DNA of 28,001 bases from Deltaproteobacteria bacterium (GCA_021772695.1 JAJFLL010000230.1:1-28001), one strand, 5' to 3'; numbered from the stretch's first letter, positions 7,876-25,518 are shown. The notes: generated by a model from the sequence alone, not told the origin. A program made the numbers and translations.

Positions 7876-8046
7876 CTAGGGAGACTTGCCTCTTATGGCA
7901 CGACTAATGGCAGCAATAATGATCAATACCAAAAAGACAAAGAACAAGATTTTGGCAATGGATGCAAAGCCTGCGGCAACTCCGGTGAAGCCTAGTACAC
8001 CGAACACAATGGCAAGCACGACAAAGGTTAAAACCCATCCAAGCAT
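7876..8046 (-). CDS. DUF1328 (UPF0391/YtjA-like) small membrane protein, 56 aa
   Basis: Below the ORF-track cutoff. MLGWVLTFVVLAIVFGVLGFTGVAAGFASIAKILFFVFLVLIIIAAISRAIRGKSP; AGGAGG RBS; characteristic LGFxG-A...IAKILF pattern. Confidence 0.92.
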   Translation of the reverse strand: MLGWVLTFVVLAIVFGVLGFTGVAAGFASIAKILFFVFLVLIIIAAISRAIRGKSP

Positions 8047-8105
8047 GTTACCTCCTAGGTTAGAAAGATAGTCTCAGATCCCTAGAGACTTAGGCAATTA
8101 AGCCC

Positions 8106-8309
8106 TTAACCTTTTAGGCCTTTGGTAAAATCGTCCAATTCCTTTTCGACCTGGTCTTTGGCTTTGCCGTATTTTGTTTGGAGCACCCCAGCCAATTCTT
8201 CACGGTGGCCTTTAACTCGATCCATGTCGTCATCGGTCAATTTGCCCCATTTCTGTTGGAATTTTCCTTTGAGTTGTTTCCATTCGCCTTCGATTTTGTC
8301 CCAGTTCAT
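8106..8309 (-). CDS. csbD: CsbD/YjbJ (UPF0337) general stress protein
   Basis: MNWDKIEGEWKQLKGKFQQKWGKLTDDD...G.LQ.KYG.AKD signature; AAGGAG RBS. Confidence 0.93.
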   Translation of the reverse strand: MNWDKIEGEWKQLKGKFQQKWGKLTDDDMDRVKGHREELAGVLQTKYGKAKDQVEKELDDFTKGLKG

Positions 8310-8562
8310 ATGCGTTCTCCTTTAAAAAGGGTTTTTGTTTTCGTCCTGTGTGGACCTTTTGGTATAGGTAGACAATATGATCAAATATGGTTTTTGTCTA
8401 TAATAAAAACAAAAAAATTTTTTACTGTCTATATTTATATGAGAACGATTAATATTTTGTCTAATATAAAATAAAATTTAATAGACGAAACAATCACTTA
8501 AGCTTACCGTACTTAGGTCCCGTAATAATTCAAAAGCCTTCTCAAGGAGTGAATTCCACCCC

Positions 8563-9360
8563 ATGCCTGAAAATAATCAACCCCAGCCAGCACCGCAGGG
8601 CGAAAAAAAAACTTCTTATTGGGTCCTCATCTTGGGGGTTCTGATTGGAGGTGCCTTAATTACCTATTTTGTCTCTAAGAGCATGACACCTGAAGAACTT
8701 CCTCAATTCAAAGAGACTCAAAAGGTTTACAGCGATGGCGAAGTAGTTTTCTACGAAGGTGTCTTGAAGTCTGTAGAAAAAATTGCAGAGGCCAAGGAAT
8801 ATTTGTTTCAGGGAAATAATCTCTATAAAAACCCAAATTACCAGCCTGCCGAATCGGGGTCAGGTGCTTCAGGGCTTCCACAAGCAGAAACCGCGCCTTC
8901 AGATAAAAATGGATATTTAAAAGCTTCTGAAAAATATGCCTTGGCTCTGGAATATTTTAAAACAGCCAGGCAACTGCTCGATCAGTCGATGGTTTCGGGA
9001 TTGGGTCCCATTCATGAATCTTGCAGTGGTCAAATTAAAATGGTGATAGATAATTATATAAGTTCTACATCTCTATTTTTCGACGATGCCAATAATATGT
9101 ATTCGGGTGAAAAGATTGAAGACGATAATCAGGTGATTACTCAAGCTCGAGCCAAATACCTTTCAGCTGAAGACAATATGAGAGACACCCTGAAGGGAAA
9201 TTGTGGTAACAATCTGTTCATTTTCTGGAATGAATCGGAAAATGGGCAGCAAGAGCGTGCTGCCGCGATCATTAAAAAAATGTATGGGCAGCAGCCTGAA
9301 GTTCTCAAGGAATTGCTTGGCCTGCTATCCCAGCCGAAACCCGAAGGTCCGCAAAAATAG
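8563..9360 (+). CDS. Hypothetical single-pass membrane protein with a helical soluble domain
   Basis: 265-aa ORF, AAGGAG upstream, one TM segment (YWVLILGVLIGGALITYFV); no family recognised. Confidence 0.7.
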   Translation: MPENNQPQPAPQGEKKTSYWVLILGVLIGGALITYFVSKSMTPEELPQFKETQKVYSDGEVVFYEGVLKSVEKIAEAKEYLFQGNNLYKNPNYQPAESGSGASGLPQAETAPSDKNGYLKASEKYALALEYFKTARQLLDQSMVSGLGPIHESCSGQIKMVIDNYISSTSLFFDDANNMYSGEKIEDDNQVITQARAKYLSAEDNMRDTLKGNCGNNLFIFWNESENGQQERAAAIIKKMYGQQPEVLKELLGLLSQPKPEGPQK

Positions 9361-9515
9361 GTGGAATGTCTGATAAAATCGTAAAAGTTTTAAATACAGT
9401 TTGTGTGATTAAAAATAAAACCCTGCAGAAATTATCAAAGTTGGGAGCGTCTCAGCCACTGGGCCCATGGATTTCAACAGCTGTAGAGATGGGGGTTTTC
9501 ATTAAAGAGTTGGGT

Positions 9516-9689
9516 CTATTGCGGCACACATACGCCTTGCTGGTAGGGTGGGCTTAGGCATTTACAACCAGCATAACAGTCTGCATTTGAGAAACAGGGA
9601 GTCCCCCCTTGGCAATAAACACAGAATCCCGATTGAATGGGCACCAACAAAACTCCAAAAAAAATCACGATAAGAATAAAAGCCTTCAT
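9516..9689 (-). CDS. Small secreted cysteine-rich peptide (knottin-like), 57 aa
   Basis: Not in ORF track. MKAFILIVIFFGVLLVPIQSGFC-VYCQGGTPCFSNADCYAGCKCLSPPYQQGVCVPQ: signal peptide-like N-terminus followed by six regularly spaced Cys. RBS is weak. Confidence 0.72.
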   Translation of the reverse strand: MKAFILIVIFFGVLLVPIQSGFCVYCQGGTPCFSNADCYAGCKCLSPPYQQGVCVPQ

Positions 9690-9919
9690 TTTCTTAACCC
9701 TATAATCTTCATTCTCTAGGAAAAGGCACCTGGGGTCAAGGTACCCGTTAACTGAAAACCGCTTCGGTATATTTACCAGGATAATATTTTACAATTCTTT
9801 CGGGAGTATGCTAGCTGCAGCTCGGCGGAAAATTTCTAAGGTGCGTTGAAAGACGATTGAATTGGGTCCTCTGGGGGTAAAGGAAACCATCATTTTAAAA
9901 GAGATAGACGGAGATTCAT

Positions 9920-10429
9920 ATGAATTTATTCACTAAACTATTAAAAATCAGCCTCCCCGCACTTTTATTAGTATTGGGCTGTGTGACATCTGCCCAAGCC
10001 TCGACCCAAAGTCGACAGTTTCAATTGAATGGTGGCGTTGGTGTCTTTGTCGGTACAGAAGGTTTAGGTGCCGCCTTTGATTTTTCTCTGGAACCGGAAT
10101 TCTTTTTTACCGAGCACAATACCTTATCAGTTCGCATGGATTTTACCGCCGGTAACACCGACTCTTTTCATATCGGTGCACGCTGGCGCTACTACTTCGA
10201 TCTTCCCAGTGAAAAGATCAATCTCTTCGTAGGTGTCGGAATTGGTGGCGTCGTCAATTTTAACGGTGGAAATTTCGGTGATGCCGCCTTGCCTGTCTTT
10301 GGTTGGCAGTACGATCTCGGCCAACACCTAAAGATTGGGTCGGATATTTCTTTCGATATTATCTTCAACGGCAATAATGTGGCCTTCGCCGCGCGTCTGA
10401 TGCCCGTAGTCTTAAAGTGGGCGTTTTAG
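9920..10429 (+). CDS. Small outer-membrane beta-barrel protein
   Basis: Signal peptide (...SAQA), alternating Gly/aromatic beta-strands, C-terminal aromatic ...LKWAF; GGAG RBS. Confidence 0.75.
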   Translation: MNLFTKLLKISLPALLLVLGCVTSAQASTQSRQFQLNGGVGVFVGTEGLGAAFDFSLEPEFFFTEHNTLSVRMDFTAGNTDSFHIGARWRYYFDLPSEKINLFVGVGIGGVVNFNGGNFGDAALPVFGWQYDLGQHLKIGSDISFDIIFNGNNVAFAARLMPVVLKWAF

Positions 10430-13478: not shown

Positions 13479-14531
13479 ATGTCTAATATCAGCTCTATCA
13501 AACAAGCAAATGCCCCGGAAGATCACGAAGGGTTGTGGCAAGAGATTCTGCGTAATCCTCAAGTGATGATTTGGATGAGTAACCCCCAGATGCAGTTTGT
13601 GAATGCGACTCAGCCTGGTTTGGAATTTTACGGAATTTCCTTGGAAGAGTTATGGGTCGCTGATTGGAAAAATTACATTCATCCTGAAGACTTAGGGCAG
13701 GTGCAACAATATTATGCCCTAGCCTTAATGGAACATCCGGTCATCAAACAGGAATATCGTGCCAAAAAGCATACTGGAGAATACGCCTGGTTATTGGATA
13801 TCAGTTATCCGCGTTTCGCTCCCAGTGGAGAATTTACCGGCTATGTGGGCTCTATTGTCGATATTACCGAGCAAATAATTCGGGAAAAAAGTTTAAAGGA
13901 AGAAATCGCCAAGATTAGCGAGTGGGAACAAAACCGAATTGGGGAAGACCTGCACGATGGCCTGGCGCAGGTGGTGTTGGGAATATCGCTTAAAGCCATG
14001 ATCATGGAAAATAAGCTGAAAAGGCGCGATCTTCCTGAGTTTTTGGTGGCGCAGGAAATTGCCAATGAGTCCAGTCGGGTTCTCGGTAGTTTGCGAAAAT
14101 TATCTCAAGCGCTTTTTCCAGCGGAGCTTTCCCAGCAGGAATTTTGCGGCTCCCTGCGCAATCTGGTGGAAAGCCATTCTCAAGAGCATGGAATCAAAAT
14201 GACCTTAAATGTGGATCCCGCTGCGGTGCCACCGGTTCCCGAACAGGCATTGCTCCTGTTTCGAATCGCGCAAGAAGCTGTGACCAACGCCGTTCGCCAC
14301 GGCAGGGCCAACCGAATCCATGTGTCGTTAAGAATCGGGTATCCCGGAAGTAATGTTTTGGAAGTTGCAGACGATGGAATCGGAATTTCCGGGGATCCCC
14401 GTGCCGCCGGCGGGCTCGGTTTACGGCTTATCGACTATCGGGCTGGCATACTCGGGGCCGAAATCGAAATTGGGAGAAGCCGAAAGGGCGGCACCGTCCT
14501 CAAGTGTTATTTCCGGTCGCAGGACCAATGA
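13479..14531 (+). CDS. Soluble PAS/PAC sensor histidine kinase (HisKA_3, NarX/UhpB class)
   Basis: PAS (IHPED...GEYAW...GYVGSIVDIT), H-box RIGEDLHDGLAQ, N-box QEAVTNAVRHG, G-boxes DDGIG and GLGL; no TM segment. Confidence 0.92.
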   Translation: MSNISSIKQANAPEDHEGLWQEILRNPQVMIWMSNPQMQFVNATQPGLEFYGISLEELWVADWKNYIHPEDLGQVQQYYALALMEHPVIKQEYRAKKHTGEYAWLLDISYPRFAPSGEFTGYVGSIVDITEQIIREKSLKEEIAKISEWEQNRIGEDLHDGLAQVVLGISLKAMIMENKLKRRDLPEFLVAQEIANESSRVLGSLRKLSQALFPAELSQQEFCGSLRNLVESHSQEHGIKMTLNVDPAAVPPVPEQALLLFRIAQEAVTNAVRHGRANRIHVSLRIGYPGSNVLEVADDGIGISGDPRAAGGLGLRLIDYRAGILGAEIEIGRSRKGGTVLKCYFRSQDQ

Positions 14532-15199
14532 ATACTAAAACACTGAAAAAGAAATACCGTATCGCATTAGTAGATGACCATCCGGTTGTGCTTAAGGGTT
14601 TGGCCGATCTGTTATCCGAAACCGAGGATCTTCAGGTTTGCGGAAAGGCCGAAGACGTGGAAGAGGCCCTGCAATTAGTCGCAGCTTCCGAACCCGATTT
14701 GGTCATCGTCGACCTTATCCTGAAGGGAATCCTTGGCATCGAACTCATCAAGGAACTACGCCAAAAATACCCACCCCTGCGAATTCTGGTTTTTTCGGTG
14801 AAACGGGAGGCTTGTTTCGCCGAGCGTGTCTTTAAGGCAGGGGCCGACGGCTACGTGGTGAAAGAAGATGCCCCGTTTGAAATTTTGCGCGCCGCCCACA
14901 CCTTGCTCAAAGGGGGTGTTTATGTGAGCAAAAAAATCCGCGAAGAAATGGTATTCGAGCCGGGAGTTCCGTTAGGCCAGGGAGGGAGGACCCTGATTCA
15001 GAAACTAAGCGACCGGGAATTGCAGGTGTTCAAATTATTGGGCCAAGGCTCCAATCCCCGCCAAATTGCCGATCAAGTGGGCGCAGGCGTCAAAACGGTC
15101 GAAACCTATTGTTTGAGAATTCGCAAAAAGCTGCACCTGCAAACCGGCTACGACTTGCTTCGTCTAGCCATCCAGCAGCACCCTGAAATATGGGATTAA
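14528..15199 (+). CDS. NarL/LuxR-family response regulator
   Basis: LVDDHP, phospho-Asp in IVDL, conserved Lys (YVVKE), HTH LSDRELQVFKLLGQG...KTVETY. ATGA start/stop overlap with the kinase. Confidence 0.93.
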   Translation: MNTKTLKKKYRIALVDDHPVVLKGLADLLSETEDLQVCGKAEDVEEALQLVAASEPDLVIVDLILKGILGIELIKELRQKYPPLRILVFSVKREACFAERVFKAGADGYVVKEDAPFEILRAAHTLLKGGVYVSKKIREEMVFEPGVPLGQGGRTLIQKLSDRELQVFKLLGQGSNPRQIADQVGAGVKTVETYCLRIRKKLHLQTGYDLLRLAIQQHPEIWD

Positions 15200-16764: not shown

Positions 16765-18432
16765 ATGTATAGCAAAACAAAACAATCAAGTTTCTTACGC
16801 ATATTGGCAATAATGGGTGTCATTGCTTTTATGGGTTGCGGTGCCGGAGTGGAGGGGCTCGAGGGCGACTCCGTTTCTGAAAGCAGCGTCACACCCAAGG
16901 AGCTGTTCAATTTTGGAGGCGGGGTTACCGAAAACCCACTCCTGCAATCGGCCGATTGGCCTTCGGCGGGGCATGACTGGGCCCATACGGGGCACAATCC
17001 CGCCGAAACCGCTCTCAGTGTGGAAACCGTCGGGGATGTGGCCGAAGTGTGGCGCCACGAATTTTCCCCGGCCCCTGGTGTGCAAGTGCCGGTCCTATCG
17101 ACGGCGGTGATCGCTGGCGATGTGGTTTATATCGCCGATATGGGTGGATTCGTTCACGCTAGAAGCGCTACTGACGGCACTTTGCTCTGGACCCAGCTGA
17201 CGAGTTTTTCCGAGCCGGATCCGGTGTTCTTTTCGGTGTTCCATGCGGCGCCGGTAGTGACCGATCACGACCTCTTCGTGGGAGACAGCGGATCGATCAT
17301 CCATAAGTTGGACCGAGACACGGGTGTTACGGAATGGTCTACCCAGGTGGAAGCCCACCCCGATTCGTTGATTCAGGGCGACTTGGCCACCGTAGGGCCC
17401 TATGTCATCTTCGGGGTGTCTTCTTTTGAAAACACCACCGTTAACGACCTGACCATGCGCGGCAGTATCGGAGCGCTAAAAAAATGGAACGGTGAGTTGG
17501 CATGGAAAACCTACACCACCTCAGATCAGAGTCTGACAGATCCCAGATGGGGAGCAGGGGTGGCGGTTTGGTCTTCCCCGGCCATCGACCCATTGCGAGG
17601 CATTTATATCGGCACCGGTCAGTACTATAATCCGGGTTCAGAAAATCCCGATCCGGAGTCGGCGAATGATCCGGATTACAGCGATTCCTTATTGCGACTC
17701 TCTTGGCTCAATGGCGACGTTCGTAACAACCATCAGTTTACTGAGGGTGATATTTTCGGTCTGGAGTATCCCATTGGACCAGACGCCGATTTGGGTACGC
17801 CGCCCAATTTGTTCCCCGTTCACGGGCACTTCGGTTTACCCAAACCGGCCGTGGGCGTGGGTGACAAGACCGGCCATTATTATGTCATGGACCGCCGCAA
17901 TCTAAATGTCTTGTGGAGCCGCAAGATCGTCGAGGGAGGTGTTCTCGGTGGCTTTCAAGCTACCGCGGCCTATGCCGACGGCATTGTTTACGTGGCCGCC
18001 CACGAACGCATCGACGGGGCCTCTATCAATGACTCTATGCCACCCGACCTAGACTCTCGATTCATCCAAACTCCCGAAGGCACCGCTTTGATTCAAAAGG
18101 GCTCGCGCACCCGTATCATGGCCCTCGATGCCGACACGGGCGACGTGGTTTGGGAAAAATACGTGAACGGCGCCATTAGCTTCGCCCCGCTCGTGGTGGC
18201 CAACGGCGTGTTGTACCATGCCAACGCCAATGGCCACTTGCACGCCATGGATGCCGGCAACGGTGATGAACTCTTTAGCACCCAGATCGGCGGCTTCCCC
18301 GACGGAGCCGGCGGATACGTCTTCGGTAACATCATTACCGCACTGTCGCTGTCACGCGGCAGGGTCTATGTGTCGTCGATCCCACTGGTACCCGGTGCGC
18401 CAACCGGAGTGTTGGTTTACGGGTTGCCTTAA
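16765..18432 (+). CDS. PQQ-type beta-propeller lipoprotein, polyvinyl-alcohol-dehydrogenase-like
   Basis: GGAGG RBS then ATG 16765; lipobox-like FMGC; WPSAGHD, repeated A.D..TG...W docking motifs, VWSSPAID, GPDADLGTPP, GDKTG; no CxxCH. Confidence 0.85.
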   Translation: MYSKTKQSSFLRILAIMGVIAFMGCGAGVEGLEGDSVSESSVTPKELFNFGGGVTENPLLQSADWPSAGHDWAHTGHNPAETALSVETVGDVAEVWRHEFSPAPGVQVPVLSTAVIAGDVVYIADMGGFVHARSATDGTLLWTQLTSFSEPDPVFFSVFHAAPVVTDHDLFVGDSGSIIHKLDRDTGVTEWSTQVEAHPDSLIQGDLATVGPYVIFGVSSFENTTVNDLTMRGSIGALKKWNGELAWKTYTTSDQSLTDPRWGAGVAVWSSPAIDPLRGIYIGTGQYYNPGSENPDPESANDPDYSDSLLRLSWLNGDVRNNHQFTEGDIFGLEYPIGPDADLGTPPNLFPVHGHFGLPKPAVGVGDKTGHYYVMDRRNLNVLWSRKIVEGGVLGGFQATAAYADGIVYVAAHERIDGASINDSMPPDLDSRFIQTPEGTALIQKGSRTRIMALDADTGDVVWEKYVNGAISFAPLVVANGVLYHANANGHLHAMDAGNGDELFSTQIGGFPDGAGGYVFGNIITALSLSRGRVYVSSIPLVPGAPTGVLVYGLP

Positions 18433-18478: not shown

Positions 18479-18515
18479 AGGTTGGCTTTGCGTTGTGAGG
18501 CCGACCTTTTTTTTT
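18479..18515 (+). terminator. Rho-independent terminator
   Basis: AGGTTGGCTT / AGGCCGACCT stem (with G-U pairs), 9-nt loop, T-run 18507-18515. Confidence 0.75.
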
Positions 18516-18608: not shown

Positions 18609-19601
18609 TTAAAAATTTGATATGCGTTGAATGACCCAAAACATAGCCATGGAACCGATGGCATAGGGGGAGATCCACTTAGCCCAAGAGGGCAGAACCA
18701 AGCGAAGGCGCCGGAGCAAGGCAATCGCCACCAAGATTATGGCAATAAAAATCAGCTGACCCAACTCGACCCCCAGGTTGAACATCAATAGGGCGAGGGG
18801 AATTTCTCTCTGGGGTAGACCGATTTCGAATAGGGCGCCTGCGAATCCGAGGCCATGCAGCAGCCCAAAGCTGAAGGCGACGATCCAGGGCCGCGATTCG
18901 GTTAGACTTATTTTTCCCTGCCACGCATGGATGATTTCCGCGGCGACAAACGCGATACTCAGCGCAATAACCGCCTCTACAGGGGCTTGAGGAATGTGAG
19001 CGAAACCCAGGGTTGCCATGGCTAGGGTGAGGCTATGGGCGAGGGTGAAGGCGGTCACCGTTCCGATGAGCCTGCGTTTTCCTTTGATCAGGATCAAGAG
19101 GGCCAAGAGGAATAACAGGTGATCGAAACCCATGAGGATGTGTTCCGATCCAAGGGTCAGGTAGGTCTTGGCGATTTGGATCCCCTTGGGATCCGTGTCG
19201 ACCACAAAATATGGATGTAAAGGCGTAAGGCGCTGCACCTGTGAGGCTATATCCAGCCGCTCGATGCGGACCAAGACATCGGTCATCGTGGCTGCCAGGC
19301 CGTCCACTTCAATTCGTTTTCCCGCCAACCCCCCCTGACATCGCGCTGTCCAGCGTTCGATTCGAGCGCCTTCAATGGCGAGGGCTGATTTGGAATCGGA
19401 TACGCAGGATGCGGGGAGGAGGACATGGAGGGAGAGACGCCACTCACCCTTCGCCGGGACCTTCCAAAGAATTTTGAAGGTCTCGGAATCGATTTGGCGA
19501 AACTCGAGGTATGCGGGTCGCATTTCGTGCGCGGTTGCGGGCCGAAGAGAGGAGAAAAGAATCAGAAGGATTACGGAAAGAACTCCAATTCGCCCAAACA
19601 T
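18609..19601 (-). CDS. HupE/UreJ family membrane protein with an N-terminal periplasmic domain
   Basis: Signal peptide then A-HEMRPAYL; GSEHILMGFDHLLF, FTLAHSLTL, EAVIALSI, FGLLHGLGFA, FNLGVELGQ. Start 19601 (alternative 19625). Confidence 0.9.
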   Translation of the reverse strand: MFGRIGVLSVILLILFSSLRPATAHEMRPAYLEFRQIDSETFKILWKVPAKGEWRLSLHVLLPASCVSDSKSALAIEGARIERWTARCQGGLAGKRIEVDGLAATMTDVLVRIERLDIASQVQRLTPLHPYFVVDTDPKGIQIAKTYLTLGSEHILMGFDHLLFLLALLILIKGKRRLIGTVTAFTLAHSLTLAMATLGFAHIPQAPVEAVIALSIAFVAAEIIHAWQGKISLTESRPWIVAFSFGLLHGLGFAGALFEIGLPQREIPLALLMFNLGVELGQLIFIAIILVAIALLRRLRLVLPSWAKWISPYAIGSMAMFWVIQRISNF

Positions 19602-19614
19602 ACATTTACCCTTT

Positions 19615-20460
19615 TTACCGGGCATGGGCCCATCCCGGGAACTGCACTTCGATGGAATATTTTTTACTCAGACCTTGCAGGAATTCTGCCTTGAATTCCC
19701 GTCGTTGTTCAGCCAACCATTCCCGTTTTACCCAATCCTTGATTTGGGAAAATTCAGGCACTTTTCCCTCCTCCTTCCCGGTGACCTTTACCAAATGCAT
19801 GCCCAGGCCCGATTCAATGGGTCCCTTCCAGACACCAGGTTCGATTTCAAACAGGGATTTTGAAAAGTCCGGTCCGAATTGTTGTTTGGTTTCTGTCGAA
19901 GAGATATTTGAAAATTGTGAAGGTAGTGCCATGGTGTCGCCCAGGGCCGAAGCTTCGACATCACGATTGCTACTGTTCAAGGTGGACAAGAGACGGGCCG
20001 CGTCCCCATTTAAATCGCTGCGTCCTTCTGGATTCAGGTAGACCTGGGTAAAACTGATGTTGGGATCGCTGGTGAATATTTTAGAATTTTTTTGAAAAAA
20101 TTCCTGAAGCTCCTTCTCACTAGCTTGCCTTTGTTCGGATAGATCCTCGGTAAGAAACTCCATCTTTTGCCGCAGGCGGCGGCGGACGATGGGGTCGTCC
20201 TGGTCGAGGCCCAGTTTTAAGGCTTCCTGGTAAAGGATCTCCTCTTGAACGGCATCGTGAATCAATCCATCCAGTTCATCTTGGGTAGGCGGCCGGTGCC
20301 AGGTTCGCTTCCAACCTTCCGCCAGCCATTCGATTTGCGGGGAACTGATCACAATTTTTTCTGGCGAGAGCGAGGTACGGTTTCCAAGGAAAAAATATAA
20401 TAGGAAAATCGCGCCGCCGATGATTAAAAAATGAAAAAGGGGTTCGCGGAACAGTTTCAT
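19615..20460 (-). CDS. Membrane-anchored parvulin/PpiC-like peptidyl-prolyl isomerase or chaperone
   Basis: REPLFHFLIIG anchor, EEILYQEAL.LGLD..D..VRRRL.QKM helical domain, W.GPIESGLGMHLV rotamase motif. Confidence 0.88.
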   Translation of the reverse strand: MKLFREPLFHFLIIGGAIFLLYFFLGNRTSLSPEKIVISSPQIEWLAEGWKRTWHRPPTQDELDGLIHDAVQEEILYQEALKLGLDQDDPIVRRRLRQKMEFLTEDLSEQRQASEKELQEFFQKNSKIFTSDPNISFTQVYLNPEGRSDLNGDAARLLSTLNSSNRDVEASALGDTMALPSQFSNISSTETKQQFGPDFSKSLFEIEPGVWKGPIESGLGMHLVKVTGKEEGKVPEFSQIKDWVKREWLAEQRREFKAEFLQGLSKKYSIEVQFPGWAHAR

Positions 20461-20485
20461 TGATTAGAATTCCCAGTTAGCGGCT

Positions 20486-22384
20486 TTATGAACTCGGGTT
20501 ATACCAGATGGGCGAACTATATCCTCGCTCCTGAAGGGATACGGGAATTTTCGGATCCAGTTTGACCCCGAATCTTTTTGCATCATAGGTTGTCCAGCGA
20601 GGTGTGGGGATTTGCAAGACCCGAACATAATAAAAGGACTTCAGCTTTGGGTCGAAGTCCGGGTCTTTCCATACGGTCGTCAGGGCTGGCCCTCCGATGC
20701 TGTTGGTGTAGCTGGCCTGGGCGGCGTTCACAGTATTGCCCACCGTTGGGACCTTCCCGTCGGGACTTTTTTTGCGATTGCCGGACCAGGCGACGTCATA
20801 AATTTTTTCTTGCACCTGACCGTCTTTATCTAACCAGCCCTTGATCACTTGCACCCGGTCCAAGTTGGCGCCGATGGGATCCTTGAGGGCCGAGACCAAA
20901 AACGTGGGAGTTTTTCCTTCGGCCGCCTGGTTTAGGTCCCCCCCCATGGGAACGCCCTTGGCGTAACCCACGGCCGCAAGGTCGGGAGTTTTTGCATCAG
21001 TAGGTTCATAGTCCCAACCCCCGAAAAAGCGGAGGGTGATTCGCGGCCCGGTGGTGGCATACACTTCCTTTCGCTCCATAGCGTCGAACAGGGCCTCCCG
21101 CGTGTTCGCATGGGCCCAAATGCCGGCGTAACCGGAGGCCGTCTGCTCCCAATCCATGATGGTGGCCACCGGTGTCTTTATAAAATCGGCCGTCAAGCGA
21201 TGGGCGCTGGGCTCGGACGAGGAGACCTTTCCAAAAAAATTGTTGCTGTCGGCAGTTGCCAAACCCGTATGGGAATCGGTCGAACCGATCATCCCAAATT
21301 TATAAGGATTGACGCCAAGTTGGGCTTCGGCTTTCAGGCCGTTCTTCAGGGCGGACCGGGCATATTCATATTCAAGCATTTCCTGCTTTTTGGATTCGCT
21401 CAGGTCCAGGTTGCCCTTGTCCCAACGCTCGAAATCGGCGAATTCGTCGTTAGGATAAAGAAAGGGATGGGTTTCTCCATCCCCCTTGATCTGCGTGACC
21501 TCGTAAATGCGCTCCCATTCGGCCCGAGCTTTGGCGTAGGTCTTGTCGATGGGCTTACCGTTGAAGGACTCGATGAGGGGAAACATGCGCCCGTTGCTCA
21601 GATTGCCGTTATGGGGGATGGCTAAAACATTGCCCTTGGTCTTTTTTTCATATTCGCTCAACCACTTCCACAAGTCTCGCGGGTTGTCGCTGCCGAGGGG
21701 TTTTTGGGTGGTGTAAGGTTCCATTTGCGCTGCCTTGGTGCCGTTGTCCCGATATATCACATTGCGATGCAAGTTATTGCCGCCCGTGTTCGAGGTCCAT
21801 TCATAGCCGATAAAGGCGGTAAAGCGCCCCGGATCGTTGGCTCCTTCCGCGGCCTTGATGGTTTCGTCCCATGCGGTCCGGTAGGCCTTGCTTCCAGGCA
21901 GGGAGGCCAATGCTTTGGGAAATCTATTCTCACTGAAGGCTTGAATGATCTCGAAGGCCGCCTCCATATTTTTTCCACTTTGAATCATGTCGTACCAGCG
22001 TTTGCCCGTCGGATCGGCCAGCATGGCGGGATCACCGGCGATCAGTTGGGGGAAGAAACCCATATTGTCTGAGTGGTCCGTGACTACAAGAAAGTCTAGT
22101 GGTCGAGCCAGCTTGGCCGGCTGTCCGCTGGAAGCCATGACCTGTTCACCCTTTGCAAAACGGTAGGCATCTGCCGGCGATAATCGACAGCCGGCGGCGC
22201 CGGCGTCCATGGAAAAGGAGGTATGGAGGTGGGTGTCGCCCCAATAGACCCGGGTGGCCTTTGGGGACGAGGAGCTCTGGTTCGCGGCAGTTTTCCCGGT
22301 GGGTTTTTCTTTGGCAAGTGTGGGACTGCTGATCAATAATCCTGCAAAAATCAGGGCAAAACCATAATATTGAGTGCGTTTCAT
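20486..22384 (-). CDS. DUF3604 family exported PHP-like metallohydrolase
   Basis: Signal peptide; YWGDTHLHT, VTDHSD, GYEWT, HRNV, IPHNGN, EVTQIKG, GSTDSHTG, EVYATTG, QERGYSSPIWY; GAGGAGG RBS. Confidence 0.9.
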   Translation of the reverse strand: MKRTQYYGFALIFAGLLISSPTLAKEKPTGKTAANQSSSSPKATRVYWGDTHLHTSFSMDAGAAGCRLSPADAYRFAKGEQVMASSGQPAKLARPLDFLVVTDHSDNMGFFPQLIAGDPAMLADPTGKRWYDMIQSGKNMEAAFEIIQAFSENRFPKALASLPGSKAYRTAWDETIKAAEGANDPGRFTAFIGYEWTSNTGGNNLHRNVIYRDNGTKAAQMEPYTTQKPLGSDNPRDLWKWLSEYEKKTKGNVLAIPHNGNLSNGRMFPLIESFNGKPIDKTYAKARAEWERIYEVTQIKGDGETHPFLYPNDEFADFERWDKGNLDLSESKKQEMLEYEYARSALKNGLKAEAQLGVNPYKFGMIGSTDSHTGLATADSNNFFGKVSSSEPSAHRLTADFIKTPVATIMDWEQTASGYAGIWAHANTREALFDAMERKEVYATTGPRITLRFFGGWDYEPTDAKTPDLAAVGYAKGVPMGGDLNQAAEGKTPTFLVSALKDPIGANLDRVQVIKGWLDKDGQVQEKIYDVAWSGNRKKSPDGKVPTVGNTVNAAQASYTNSIGGPALTTVWKDPDFDPKLKSFYYVRVLQIPTPRWTTYDAKRFGVKLDPKIPVSLQERGYSSPIWYNPSS

Positions 22385-22815
22385 TTGAGGCCTCCTCGGG
22401 GCTGAAAAAATTTAAATATCACCACTTTTTATAAAGTGAGCAAAGGACCAAGACGACACAGGCGTTTTATTAAAACTCGGTTTTTAGGTATTGACGGCCT
22501 CTTCCTTTGAAAATTTCTGGGGGGGTGTTGCTTGTTCTTGATTATATTTACCTATTTTCGGGACTTATCTGGGGGAATATCCCTAGTCTCAGCATTATCC
22601 AGTATTTAAATATATTTATCATCTAATTTTATGGGAATTGCCTGAGCGTAGATATGATGGCTTGCCCAGTTGTGTTGTTTGAGATGTTTGGCCATCCGAA
22701 AAAATCCAAAAGCATTCGGGCCCCGGCTTGGCAGACTTGCTATTTCAGTTTTTATTTGCCGAGAAATAATCTGGTATTTTCGAGAATTTAAATTAAGCCC
22801 CGCTTCGGTCTATTC

Positions 22816-25518
22816 TCAGCGGGGGTTTTTATAGCGTAGGTTCCAGGTCCACTTGTGGAGTTCCATGACCAGCAAGACCGTAAGGGCTAGTGCGAATAAC
22901 AGTGCTCCCGTTTCGAGGTTCACCGCCTGCGTCGAGAGCAGTTTTTGGCCGAAGGGAAGATACATAAAGGCCAGGTGCACCGAAAACGCGAGCAAAGCAC
23001 CAACGACGAGAAAGGGGCTTCTCAAAGGAGAGAGGGTGAAGGCCGAGCGGGTTTCGGAACGGCAATTGCCCAAATGCACGTTTTCAAAGAGGACCATGAG
23101 CAAGAGTATTCCGTTGCGTGCGGTCTCTTCGGGCCAACCGGCCTCTAGCATCCAATAAAAAGTAGCGATGCTCACCCCGCCCATGACCACAGCTCCCACC
23201 AAAACCCGTTCCACCATCAAACGATTGAAGATCCTTTCCTTGGGAGGGCGGGGAGGTTGTTCCAATTCGTTGCCCAGTCCGGGCTCGAAGGCCAGGGCCA
23301 CGTCTTGAATGCCGTTAGTCACCAGATTCAACCAAAGCAATTGCACGGGAAGCAGGGGAAGGGGCAGGCCCATGGCGATGGATAAGGCCACCATGATGAC
23401 CTCGGCGGCGCCCGTAGAGATGAGCAGGTAAATAACGTTTCTAACGTTGTTGTAAGCGATGCGGCCTTCTTCCACTCCCGAGACGATGGTGGAAAAGTTA
23501 TCGTCGCTGATCACAATGTCGGATGCGTCACGCGCCACATCGGTCCCCGCCTTGCCCATGGCGACTCCGATGTTGGCGGTGCGCAGTGCGGGGGCGTCAT
23601 TGACGCCGTCCCCGGTCATGGCCACGAAATGCTTGTTGTGTTTGCAGGCGTCGACGATGCGGAGTTTTTCGCGGGGGGCCACCCGGGAATAGACTTTGAT
23701 ATGATGCGCTAATTCCCGCAATGCTTCGTCGTCTACCTGCTGCAATTGGGGACCGGTGAGGACTTGATCCAATGAATCGGCCAGCCCCAACTGGCGGGCG
23801 ATGGCCAAGGCGGTCAGCGGATGGTCCCCGGTGATCATGGCAACCTGGATTCCGGCCCGGTGGCAGGCGTCGATGGCCTCGGGTACTCCGGACCGCAGAG
23901 GATCGATCATGCCGACCAGGCCTAAAAACTTTAATCGTGAGGGAGCGATGGGTACCGTGTCGGGATCGATTGGCTCGTGATTCCGCTTTTCCGCCAAGGC
24001 AATGACGCGATAACCCCGTTCGGCGAGATTTTGCGCCTGTTGCAGGGCCGAATTTTGGGATTCCTCCGAATCGGTAAAATCGCACATGGACAATACTTTT
24101 TCCGGCGCTCCCTTGACCACGCTTAGGTATTCGGCTCCCACCCGGTGAAAGGAGGCGGAAAATTGATTTTCCGGTTCAAAGGGGATGCTATTCACTTGTG
24201 GGAATTGATTCCAGGATGGATCCCGGGTGACCCCGCCCTTTCGGGCCATGGTCAATAGGGCGATGTCGGTAGGATCACCCCGAAAGACCCATTGGTCGTC
24301 CCGCCGGCGGAGGTCCCCTTCGTTACACAATACGGCGGTTTGTAACAAAGGTGAGAGGGAAGGGAACTGATCGGACTTAACCTCCGATTCTTCGTATTGG
24401 ATTTTGCCGTTGGGTTCAAAGCCTTGTCCTGAAACCTTGAGACATGTGCCGCCGGATAAATAAATTTCCTGAACCGTAAGTTCATTGCAAGTCAGGGTAC
24501 CGGTCTTATCGCTTCCGATGAAAGTGCAACTGCCCAAGCCTTCTACCGCGGCGAGCTTTCTGACGATGACGCCCTTAGCGGCCATACGATTGGTGGCGAT
24601 GGCCAGGGCCACGGTCACCGCCACGGGCAGGCCTTCAGGAATGGCAGAGACCGCCAGGGCAACCGCGAAAAAGAACATCTCCTTTAACCCGTAGGCCTTG
24701 AGAAATCCTATTCCCGCCACGGCAAAGGCGGCCACCAATACGGCGAAGCCCACGATTTTGGTAAAACGTTCCAGGCGTTGCAACAGGGGTGCCTTGCCCG
24801 CCTTCGTGCCGATGACATCCATGGCCAATTGACCAATCAGCGTTTGGGTACCGGTGGTCACGACGATCCCTTCGCCGCGACCCCGCACCACGGTGGTTCC
24901 CGCAAAGACCATATTGTGCCGGTCACCTACGGGAACCATTTCAGTGCTCAGCCAATGAGGATTTTTTAATACAGACAAGGATTCTCCAGTCAGGGGAGAT
25001 TCATCGATCTCTAACCCCTTGGCCTTTAGTAAGCGAATATCTGCTGGGATCCGGTCGCCCGGTTCCAACCAGACGCGATCTCCCGGCACCACGTGTTCGG
25101 CGGAAATCTGCCGGGGTTCTTGATCCCGGCTCACCAAGGCTTCAATCTGCAAGAGTTTCTCCAAGGCCCGGCTGCTGCGATCGGCCCGCCATTCTTCGTA
25201 CCCTCCAATGATCGCGTTGATGAGCAGCACGGCCGCGATAAAGGCGGCATCGATATGTTCACCGATGAATAGCGAGACCAAGGCGGCGACCCCTAAAATA
25301 TAAATGAGGGGGCTTTGAAATTGTCTAAAGAAAATTAGAAATAGGTTGGGTGGTGCTTCACGGGGCAAGATATTGGGCCCGAATTGTTCCAGTCGGGATT
25401 GCGCCTCGGCTTCACTTAATCCGGTATCTTGGGTGTTTAGTTTGTTTAATAGTTCGGCGGGCTGAAGGCTGAACCATTGGGGACTCGGAATGCGGCCGCG
25501 GCCTGGAGCGGTTGCCAT
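22816..25518 (-). CDS. Type II cation-transporting P-type ATPase
   Basis: LTGES, IPEGLP, DKTGTLT, GDPTD, KGAPE, DPLR, MITGD, GDGVNDAP; about 10 TM segments. Confidence 0.95.
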   Translation of the reverse strand: MATAPGRGRIPSPQWFSLQPAELLNKLNTQDTGLSEAEAQSRLEQFGPNILPREAPPNLFLIFFRQFQSPLIYILGVAALVSLFIGEHIDAAFIAAVLLINAIIGGYEEWRADRSSRALEKLLQIEALVSRDQEPRQISAEHVVPGDRVWLEPGDRIPADIRLLKAKGLEIDESPLTGESLSVLKNPHWLSTEMVPVGDRHNMVFAGTTVVRGRGEGIVVTTGTQTLIGQLAMDVIGTKAGKAPLLQRLERFTKIVGFAVLVAAFAVAGIGFLKAYGLKEMFFFAVALAVSAIPEGLPVAVTVALAIATNRMAAKGVIVRKLAAVEGLGSCTFIGSDKTGTLTCNELTVQEIYLSGGTCLKVSGQGFEPNGKIQYEESEVKSDQFPSLSPLLQTAVLCNEGDLRRRDDQWVFRGDPTDIALLTMARKGGVTRDPSWNQFPQVNSIPFEPENQFSASFHRVGAEYLSVVKGAPEKVLSMCDFTDSEESQNSALQQAQNLAERGYRVIALAEKRNHEPIDPDTVPIAPSRLKFLGLVGMIDPLRSGVPEAIDACHRAGIQVAMITGDHPLTALAIARQLGLADSLDQVLTGPQLQQVDDEALRELAHHIKVYSRVAPREKLRIVDACKHNKHFVAMTGDGVNDAPALRTANIGVAMGKAGTDVARDASDIVISDDNFSTIVSGVEEGRIAYNNVRNVIYLLISTGAAEVIMVALSIAMGLPLPLLPVQLLWLNLVTNGIQDVALAFEPGLGNELEQPPRPPKERIFNRLMVERVLVGAVVMGGVSIATFYWMLEAGWPEETARNGILLLMVLFENVHLGNCRSETRSAFTLSPLRSPFLVVGALLAFSVHLAFMYLPFGQKLLSTQAVNLETGALLFALALTVLLVMELHKWTWNLRYKNPR

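Follow-up and report, generated by a model that had tools for sequence, protein, structure and literature searches.

How does an enzyme that crosses the membrane unfolded come to hold the right metal in the periplasm? This is a long-standing question with few answers, among them folding before Tat export and a handful of copper chaperones, and it is raised by three adjacent genes in a 28,001-nt stretch of DNA from a Deltaproteobacteria bacterium (GCA_021772695.1 JAJFLL010000230.1:1-28001). We refer to this whole stretch as the window. All three genes lie on the minus strand, and they encode an exported DUF3604 protein (D; 20486-22384, 632 aa), a membrane-anchored SurA/PrsA/HP0175-like parvulin protein (P; 19615-20460, 281 aa), and a HupE_UreJ_2 permease with a predicted periplasmic N-terminal beta-sandwich (H; 18609-19625, 338 aa); the letters stand for genes and proteins alike. 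A preliminary description, made from the sequence, had suggested that the three form a dedicated system comprising an exported metallohydrolase, a private foldase and a membrane protein for metal delivery or product uptake. We found that D, P and H are one conserved unit, associated far beyond chance, and here we weigh what that unit may do.

A conserved three-gene unit

D and P are separated by 25 nt, and the likely start of H is the ATG at 19601, which is preceded by an AAAGGG ribosome-binding site and leaves 13 nt between P and H; the alternative start at 19625 would give an 11-nt overlap of the two genes. The open reading frame (ORF) coordinates and our reading of the start sites therefore agree with the preliminary description, which had the three genes co-oriented with these spacings or an overlap. 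It had also stated that all three products are exported or membrane bound, and this held as well: D carries a Sec-type signal peptide (about residues 1-24), P has a single N-terminal transmembrane (TM) helix by hydropathy, and H has six TM helices after a signal peptide and an N-terminal domain.

We scanned for D loci using one genome per species, which yielded at least 573 confirmed loci, and kept the best 80; linkage was counted at the 54 loci where D is flanked on each side by 2.5 kb or more. Both P and H were present at 44 of these 54 well-flanked loci, spread over more than 10 phyla, and P alone was present at one, so that the recurrence of this gene order in many bacteria, as given in the preliminary description, is borne out. 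P invariably stands immediately ahead of H on the same strand, and the two genes overlap by 4 bp at 29 of the 54 loci. The pair lies downstream of D at 31 loci and upstream at 23. In a maximum-likelihood tree of D the phyla were thoroughly mixed, and at least eight switches between the orders DPH and PHD fell on well-supported branches. The linkage has therefore been kept or re-made repeatedly. The patchy distribution of the block, together with D identities of ~60-80% across phyla, indicates that it has been transferred horizontally as a block. Mean pairwise identity was 70% for D, 49% for H and 38% for P, and the nearest relatives of the window's proteins were 80% (D), 58% (P) and 65% (H) identical.

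Coupling was exact within the phylum to which the window belongs. Seven of its 93 genomes hold a full D, and strong P matches (E <= 1e-49) were found in exactly these seven, each beside D; the other nine P matches in the phylum were generic parvulin domains at ~1e-17. Full-length H matches (E <= 1e-100) occurred in the same seven genomes, each directly after P. HupE_UreJ_2 paralogues that match in the TM part alone were found in 11 further genomes of the phylum, and the window's genome also encodes, at a site lacking P and D, one full-length H paralogue that scores lower. Co-occurrence beyond chance was the preliminary description's own test of its proposal, and the presence of P and H in precisely the D genomes provides it. 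The gene unit, the localization signals, the conservation and the phyletic coupling are thus directly supported.

In all five genomes with an orphan D locus a strong P lies at another site, which in two of the five is next to a further D paralogue. These genomes carry ~2 to 8 copies of D, and a single P-H pair thus apparently serves several D paralogues. Two candidate gene fusions were examined and rejected. P0224 (611 aa) resembled a Rosetta-stone fusion of P and H, but its H part keeps a signal peptide and its P part is incomplete, which makes a frameshift or a gene-calling merger the probable origin; P0144 (449 aa), a D fragment joined to P, is the same kind of artefact.

The preliminary description knew of no assigned function for this gene order. 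In our full-text literature search, DUF3604 was mentioned by two papers, neither of them functional, and no paper linked it with a parvulin and HupE/UreJ-2. The module is widespread and undescribed in the literature searched, and the window holds one more ordinary member of it.

The candidate enzyme and its two membrane partners

D matches the DUF3604 profile over nearly its whole length (PF12228; E = 2e-251, 835.9 bits against a gathering cut-off of 20.4, profile positions 3-591 of 591). Among 75 homologues from more than 10 phyla, the nine candidate metal ligands H52, H54, D60, H104, E195, H206, H258, D370 and H372 are invariant, as are the motifs H52-L-H54, D103-H104 and D370-S-H372, so the PHP-type ligand set noted previously is present and conserved; many Arg, Lys and Asn residues are likewise invariant in these homologues. 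A Tat-like pattern was found in three of the 75, one of them plausible, and the printed N-termini look Sec-type. In the window's D and in its closest relative (L004), residues 25-47 lack the N-terminal segment usual in homologues (consensus ...PYSPYAGRNFP before the first HxH strand), and a short Ser/Lys-rich linker takes its place.

The AlphaFold2 (AF2) model of D (predicted local distance difference test [pLDDT] 89.3) has a strand-helix barrel followed by C-terminal immunoglobulin (Ig)-like beta-sandwich domains, with the candidate ligands at or after predicted strand ends. When the model was compared with the PDB using Foldseek, the top match was the PHP phosphoesterase 3e0f, which is a weak match (E = 3.6e-3, probability 0.94, TM-scores 0.18/0.35); RNase AM (9etk) ranked 46th among the fold matches. 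Pfam searches at E <= 10 on the separate domains gave no PHP match and added nothing, and a protein-atlas search with D returned its own family alone. In a 2026 preprint, DUF3604 is placed among the TIM-barrel families, its metal site being predicted but unreported. From the ligand pattern and the model, a PHP-like multinuclear metallohydrolase appears to be a reasonable reading of D.

P is a parvulin relative with an altered active site. It matches Rotamase_2 (PF13145; E = 2e-13, 51.6 bits, cut-off 27) and PF00639 (26.3 bits, cut-off 21.7), and its best PDB match is Helicobacter pylori HP0175 (5ez1; E = 4.7e-5, residues 62-254), with weaker matches to PrsA, a PEB4-like protein and SurA. In the HP0175 alignment, helical segments flank the parvulin domain as they do in SurA/PrsA/HP0175-type chaperones. 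The same alignment places Q139 at the first position of the dual-His motif, a position occupied by Gln in 34 and by His in 16 of 50 homologues; the second residue of the motif, H222, is invariant among them. The earlier suggestion of a parvulin-like chaperone thus stands as far as the HP0175-type alignment goes, although the dual-His motif is incomplete. Because the first parvulin His is Gln, we consider a chaperone role likelier for P than isomerase catalysis.

The most conserved parts of P lie outside the parvulin domain, in the TM anchor and in a helical block. The anchor carries the motif EPLxHF..G...F, in which E6, P7, L8, F11, G15 and F19 are each kept in at least 90% of homologues, and the invariant helical block reads LGLDxDDxIRRRLxQKxxF, around R93-R94-R95, Q98 and K99. 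A Pfam search at E <= 10 on the helical domain added nothing. An anchor conserved at the level of sequence suggests that P may have a specific helix-helix partner.

H belongs to the HupE_UreJ_2 family (PF13795; E = 1.5e-46, 158.3 bits, cut-off 24.5) and scores below the cut-off of 23 against PF04955 (19.7 bits). Its signal peptide is predicted to be cleaved between ATA and HEM, which would make His the first mature residue. At least 95% of 58 homologues retain this His1, inside a conserved H-E-x-R-P-x-Y motif. The first TM helix contains H-I-L-M-G-F-D-H, whose Gly, Asp and two His residues are invariant, and fits the HupE signature HPXXGXDH (PMC7689651) except for the Pro. Both the His-containing TM motifs and the His directly after the cleavage site were therefore read correctly in the preliminary description.

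In the AF2 model of H (pLDDT 91.8), a beta-sandwich (chain residues 30-133) precedes a helical membrane domain. The only significant fold matches of the N-terminal domain were to Vibrio cholerae ZrgA, in its apo (8ezw, E = 2.7e-4) and zinc-bound (8f1b) forms. The domain had no sequence match in the PDB, including 9GCE, the structure of RbAng-1a (phmmer and profile searches, E <= 10), and a Pfam search at the same threshold added nothing; 9GCE was also absent from the top 50 Foldseek matches of H, its presence in the fold library being unverified. Ang domains of anglerase-HupE/UreJ-2 permeases bind Cu through His1, and Ang-1 also binds Ni (PMC12537917). By predicted architecture, H resembles these His1-domain permeases, and it does not appear to be an Ang-1 member.

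The full-length paralogue in the window's own genome is a second H-like protein (339 aa), encoded on a contig of ~3 kb (G000 contig C257; L003:918-1937, minus strand). It has a cleavage site between QA and H and the same TM motifs, stands without P or D beside it, and adjoins a HAD or trehalose-phosphatase-like gene.

We compared how closely the three proteins track one another. Distance correlation was r = 0.70 for P and H and ~0.35 for both D-P and D-H (all Mantel p <= 0.001). Co-folding covered the P + H pair and three controls, and gave an ipSAE of 0.36 for the pair (runs 0.33, 0.36 and 0.40) versus 0.01 for the best control, a value that the tool rates as weak support. When the tool was calibrated, 58 of 80 solved complexes and 2 of 110 mismatched pairs attained this mark, but scores of 0.60 or less were seen for only 7 of the 80 solved complexes. 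The predicted interface sets anchor residues 6-22 of P against two helices of H (205-227 and 305-329; chain residues 217-225 and 312-328), which hold the conserved residues E222, W322 and R326. A membrane complex of P and H thus has modest but coherent support from modelling. Since P and H are always adjacent, correlate at 0.70 compared with 0.35, and have a predicted TM-TM contact, the link of P with H looks closer than its link with D.

Proposed folding and metal loading, and competing accounts

What D acts on can be approached from the genes that gather around it. S1 sulfatases lie near D, mostly on the same strand, at ~12 of the 80 loci (~15%), including L016, L020, L021, L033, L036, L044, L065, L066, L074, L075 and L080; these loci span five phyla, and the arrangement occurs in Verrucomicrobiota, Nitrospirota, Thermodesulfobacteriota, and Alpha- and Betaproteobacteria. 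A formylglycine-generating enzyme (FGE) is encoded near D at ~5 of the 80. In L033, the D locus and its immediate surroundings contain three of the genome's four sulfatase genes, and across five genomes 10 of 26 sulfatase genes fall within ~15 kb of D, a number biased by the choice of genomes that show the linkage. Because known PHP enzymes are phosphoesterases (PMC11656708) and sulfatases are among its neighbours, we propose, with low confidence, that the substrate of D may be an anionic ester, phospho- or sulfo-.

Another protein has been tied to sulfate removal in a comparable setting. BT4655, from the heparin polysaccharide utilization locus of Bacteroides thetaiotaomicron, is a genetically implicated candidate formylglycine-independent N-sulfatase (PMC10154612). 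It is an uncharacterized non-S1 enzyme situated among sulfatases, much as D lies in sulfatase/FGE clusters at ~12 of the 80 loci. We rejected BT4655 as a DUF3604 member, since a PF12228 search of the B. thetaiotaomicron control genome gave no match, and it is at most a distant analogue of D.

Other recurrent neighbours are membrane proteins. A small outer-membrane barrel of unknown family (~260-320 aa), which resembles DUF481, YfaZ and OMP_b-brl by atlas structure, is encoded at ~20 of the 80 loci (for example, L073:11865-12833, L016:7035-7814 and L031:12349-13116) and is absent from the window. A FadL-type channel gene lies near D at 4 of the 80. At ~6 loci an extra, canonical short HupE/UreJ gene (PF04955, E = 9e-57) is in or appended to the operon, giving two-HupE operons in L039 (11824-12447), L041, L043, L056, L057 and L075.

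We propose that D works in the periplasm and is served by two membrane proteins of its own, a chaperone and a permease, which would fold it and load it with metal after Sec export, and we judge the chances that this account is right or wrong to be about even. D would leave the cytoplasm unfolded through Sec, and both its folding and the filling of its multi-metal site, probably a trinuclear, PHP-like one, would take place beyond the inner membrane. P and H would form an inner-membrane unit in which the conserved TM helix of P packs against H. The periplasmic SurA/PrsA-like domain of P would hold or fold newly exported D, while H, whose ZrgA-like beta-sandwich carries the N-terminal His and whose TM path is lined by His, Asp and Glu, would supply or buffer metal beside the folding enzyme. 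Mature D might then hydrolyse an anionic ester (a phospho-ester, sulfo-ester or sulfamate) in the periplasm. We infer the P-H contact, which the co-fold model supports weakly, as well as the chaperone role, the metal hand-off with its direction, and the substrate class. A more ambitious version of this proposal, possible in our view but doubtful, is that P and H are a dedicated inner-membrane "metallation station", a complex that holds D during folding and gives it the correct metal against the Cu/Zn bias of the periplasm, and that D belongs to a new class of hydrolases acting on sulfated or phosphorylated compounds independently of formylglycine.

Several results weigh against this proposal. 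The PHP assignment of D is weak: the preliminary description's inference of a PHP fold is weakly favoured by the fold-search match to 3e0f but not by profile comparison, since hhalign of D against a PolX PHP profile, built from an alignment of relatives, gave a probability of 0.25% and no match, and sequence and profile searches of the PDB with D returned no matches. Neither P nor H lies near D at 9 of the 54 well-flanked loci, and P is unlinked to any D in three of the five orphan-D genomes. By the tool's calibration, a co-fold score such as that of P and H is more often wrong than right unless the prior is already high. The main weakness concerns direction, in that the activity known for HupE-type proteins is uptake into the cytoplasm, which alone does not load a periplasmic enzyme.

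If import is taken at face value, the three genes could be co-regulated without being physically coupled: H, with P as an assembly or gating partner, would import scarce Ni, Co, Cu or Zn, and D would be needed under the same condition, for example, in metal-sparing or metal-dependent scavenging, with neither metal nor polypeptide handed over. Import by HupE/UreJ proteins is documented (PMC7689651), inward passage of captured metal has been proposed for anglerase permeases (PMC12537917), P and H are coupled more tightly to each other than either is to D, and H-like paralogues stand without D on contig C257 and in 11 other genomes of the phylum. However, the presence of the P subfamily and of full-length H in 7 of 7 D genomes and in none of the 86 others would be unexpected for a general uptake system, and the linkage to D has outlasted at least eight changes of order. 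A crude consensus scan of 54 upstream regions also found no Zur, Fur or NikR boxes, nor any PhoB or Irr boxes. We therefore regard co-regulation alone as rather unlikely. An improbable alternative joins processing to uptake, in keeping with the product uptake that the preliminary description named as an alternative. Here, D would cleave a metal-bearing or cationic compound in the periplasm (for example, a metal-ester or chelate complex), the cation released would be captured by the His1 domain and imported by H, and P would be a scaffold tethering D rather than a foldase. The Gln at the first parvulin His in 34 of 50 P homologues fits a non-catalytic scaffold, and the outer-membrane barrel and the FadL-type channel suggest entry of a substrate from outside. 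On the other hand, no known PHP-type enzyme releases metal as a product, and the presence of sulfatase and FGE genes nearby suggests anionic esters as the nutrients; the sulfate and phosphate that these yield are not HupE substrates.

It could also be asked whether the adjacency means anything at all, either because the block is a hitch-hiking remnant of horizontal transfer or because the ORFs are not real genes. The patchy spread and the high D identity across phyla do reflect transfer of the block, but all three ORFs are intact with full-length family matches, their identities to nearest relatives (80/58/65% for D/P/H) are consistent with purifying selection, and the co-occurrence statistics exclude chance. 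We give this explanation almost no credence, and the proposal of an exported enzyme matured by its own chaperone-permease pair remains the one we prefer.

Boundaries of the unit and known systems

The flanks of the trio in the window are as the preliminary description had them, with a 431-bp gap upstream and a convergent gene downstream, both evident in our gene map. The upstream neighbour is a type-II P-type cation ATPase gene ending at 22816. The intergenic region between it and D (22385-22815, minus strand) is, from sequence reading and a consensus scan, the probable promoter region of a three-gene operon: it contains a terminator-like hairpin and T-rich run just past the ATPase gene, weak sigma-70-like sites, and a GAGGAGG ribosome-binding site at 22397-22391. 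Downstream, a convergent PQQ-propeller gene ends at 18432, and a GC-rich hairpin of 13 pairs with a T-run, a terminator-like site at 18479-18507 between H and the PQQ-propeller gene, is the likely transcript end of the region. An Rfam search of the whole stretch found no riboswitch or other RNA family, and alignment of the upstream regions of the window, L004 and G040 revealed no common motif.

We rejected the P-type ATPase, the PQQ propeller, a histidine kinase and a response regulator as members of the unit, as none of them recurs beside D elsewhere. The flanks of the closest D relative (80% identity) also differ from those of the window. Because the window's other genes do not recur and its closest relative has different flanks, we take the unit to be the trio alone.

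The kinase and regulator, a PAS histidine kinase with a NarL/LuxR-type response regulator, lie at 13479-15199, 3.4 kb from the trio. At L074:3-4262 a similar pair leads a series of genes that all point the same way, comprising unknown genes, a sulfatase gene and D-P-H, and LuxR-type regulators recur in L016, L020 and L021. It is possible that the pair regulates the D-P-H module. Elsewhere in the window, G+C content is ~0.40-0.41 at 8001-10000, compared with ~0.50 in the rest. The sequencing runs that contain the stretch are all DNA runs of a biofilm metagenome.

New here are the exact phyletic coupling within one phylum, the repeated switches of gene order, the tighter co-evolution of P and H, the predicted interface at a conserved anchor, the sharing of one P-H pair among D paralogues, the Sec export of D, the sulfatase/FGE clusters around ~15% of loci, and the negative Ang-1 and PHP-profile tests. 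Beyond the confirmed loci, the module's reach is evident in more than 8000 D protein clusters and ~1640 P-subfamily representatives at 50% identity. With three genes and unusually clean phyletic coupling, it is a testable case for the question of periplasmic metal loading, and its carriers include cultured strains of Rhizobium, Mesorhizobium, Ensifer, Halomonas and Variovorax. Once the module is worked out, a function would follow for DUF3604 and for a branch of the HupE/UreJ-2 "anglerase" permeases, and a new type of ester hydrolase allied with sulfatases might emerge.

Each of the three proteins has known relatives or counterparts from which it departs. H is like the anglerase-HupE/UreJ-2 permeases (RbAng-1a, 9GCE; MmAng-2a; Franco Cairo et al., Nat Commun 2025, PMC12537917) in that a predicted His1 on a periplasmic beta-sandwich is fused to PF13795. 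It is unlike Ang-1 (RbAng-1a) in that its N-terminal domain has no detectable sequence similarity to it and finds its best fold match in ZrgA. The anglerase neighbours given in that paper are DUF4198, indigoidine-A-like and PfkB proteins, and neither DUF3604 nor a parvulin partner is mentioned there. D shares with the trinuclear PHP phosphoesterases of TrpH/YciV type (BAD_1165, 3e0f; V. cholerae RNase AM, 9etk; Sb-PDE/No-PDE, PMC11656708) a putative ligand order of HxH, D, DH, E, H, H and DxH at strand ends. Unlike known PHP enzymes, which are cytoplasmic, D appears to be Sec exported, and it is about twice their size, with long insertions and C-terminal Ig-like domains.

P, for its part, combines a parvulin domain with helical chaperone segments on the extracytoplasmic side, as do PrsA, PpiD, SurA, H. 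pylori HP0175 and Campylobacter jejuni PEB4, and it shares an N-terminal TM anchor with PpiD. Those proteins are general housekeeping foldases, whereas the P subfamily occurs only with D and H among the genomes of its own phylum; P also differs from them in the conserved sequence of its anchor and in the Gln that mostly replaces the first catalytic His.

Private maturation factors are known in the periplasm, namely, the lipase-specific foldase Lif/LipB and NosL/NosDFY for N2O reductase. To our knowledge, no example joins a foldase-like protein with a HupE-type permease, and the metallation station, if true, would have no described precedent among Sec-exported hydrolases. D-P-H has no homology to Lif/LipB or NosL/NosDFY, yet by analogy it would share their arrangement, in which an exported enzyme is encoded beside a membrane-anchored helper needed for that enzyme only.

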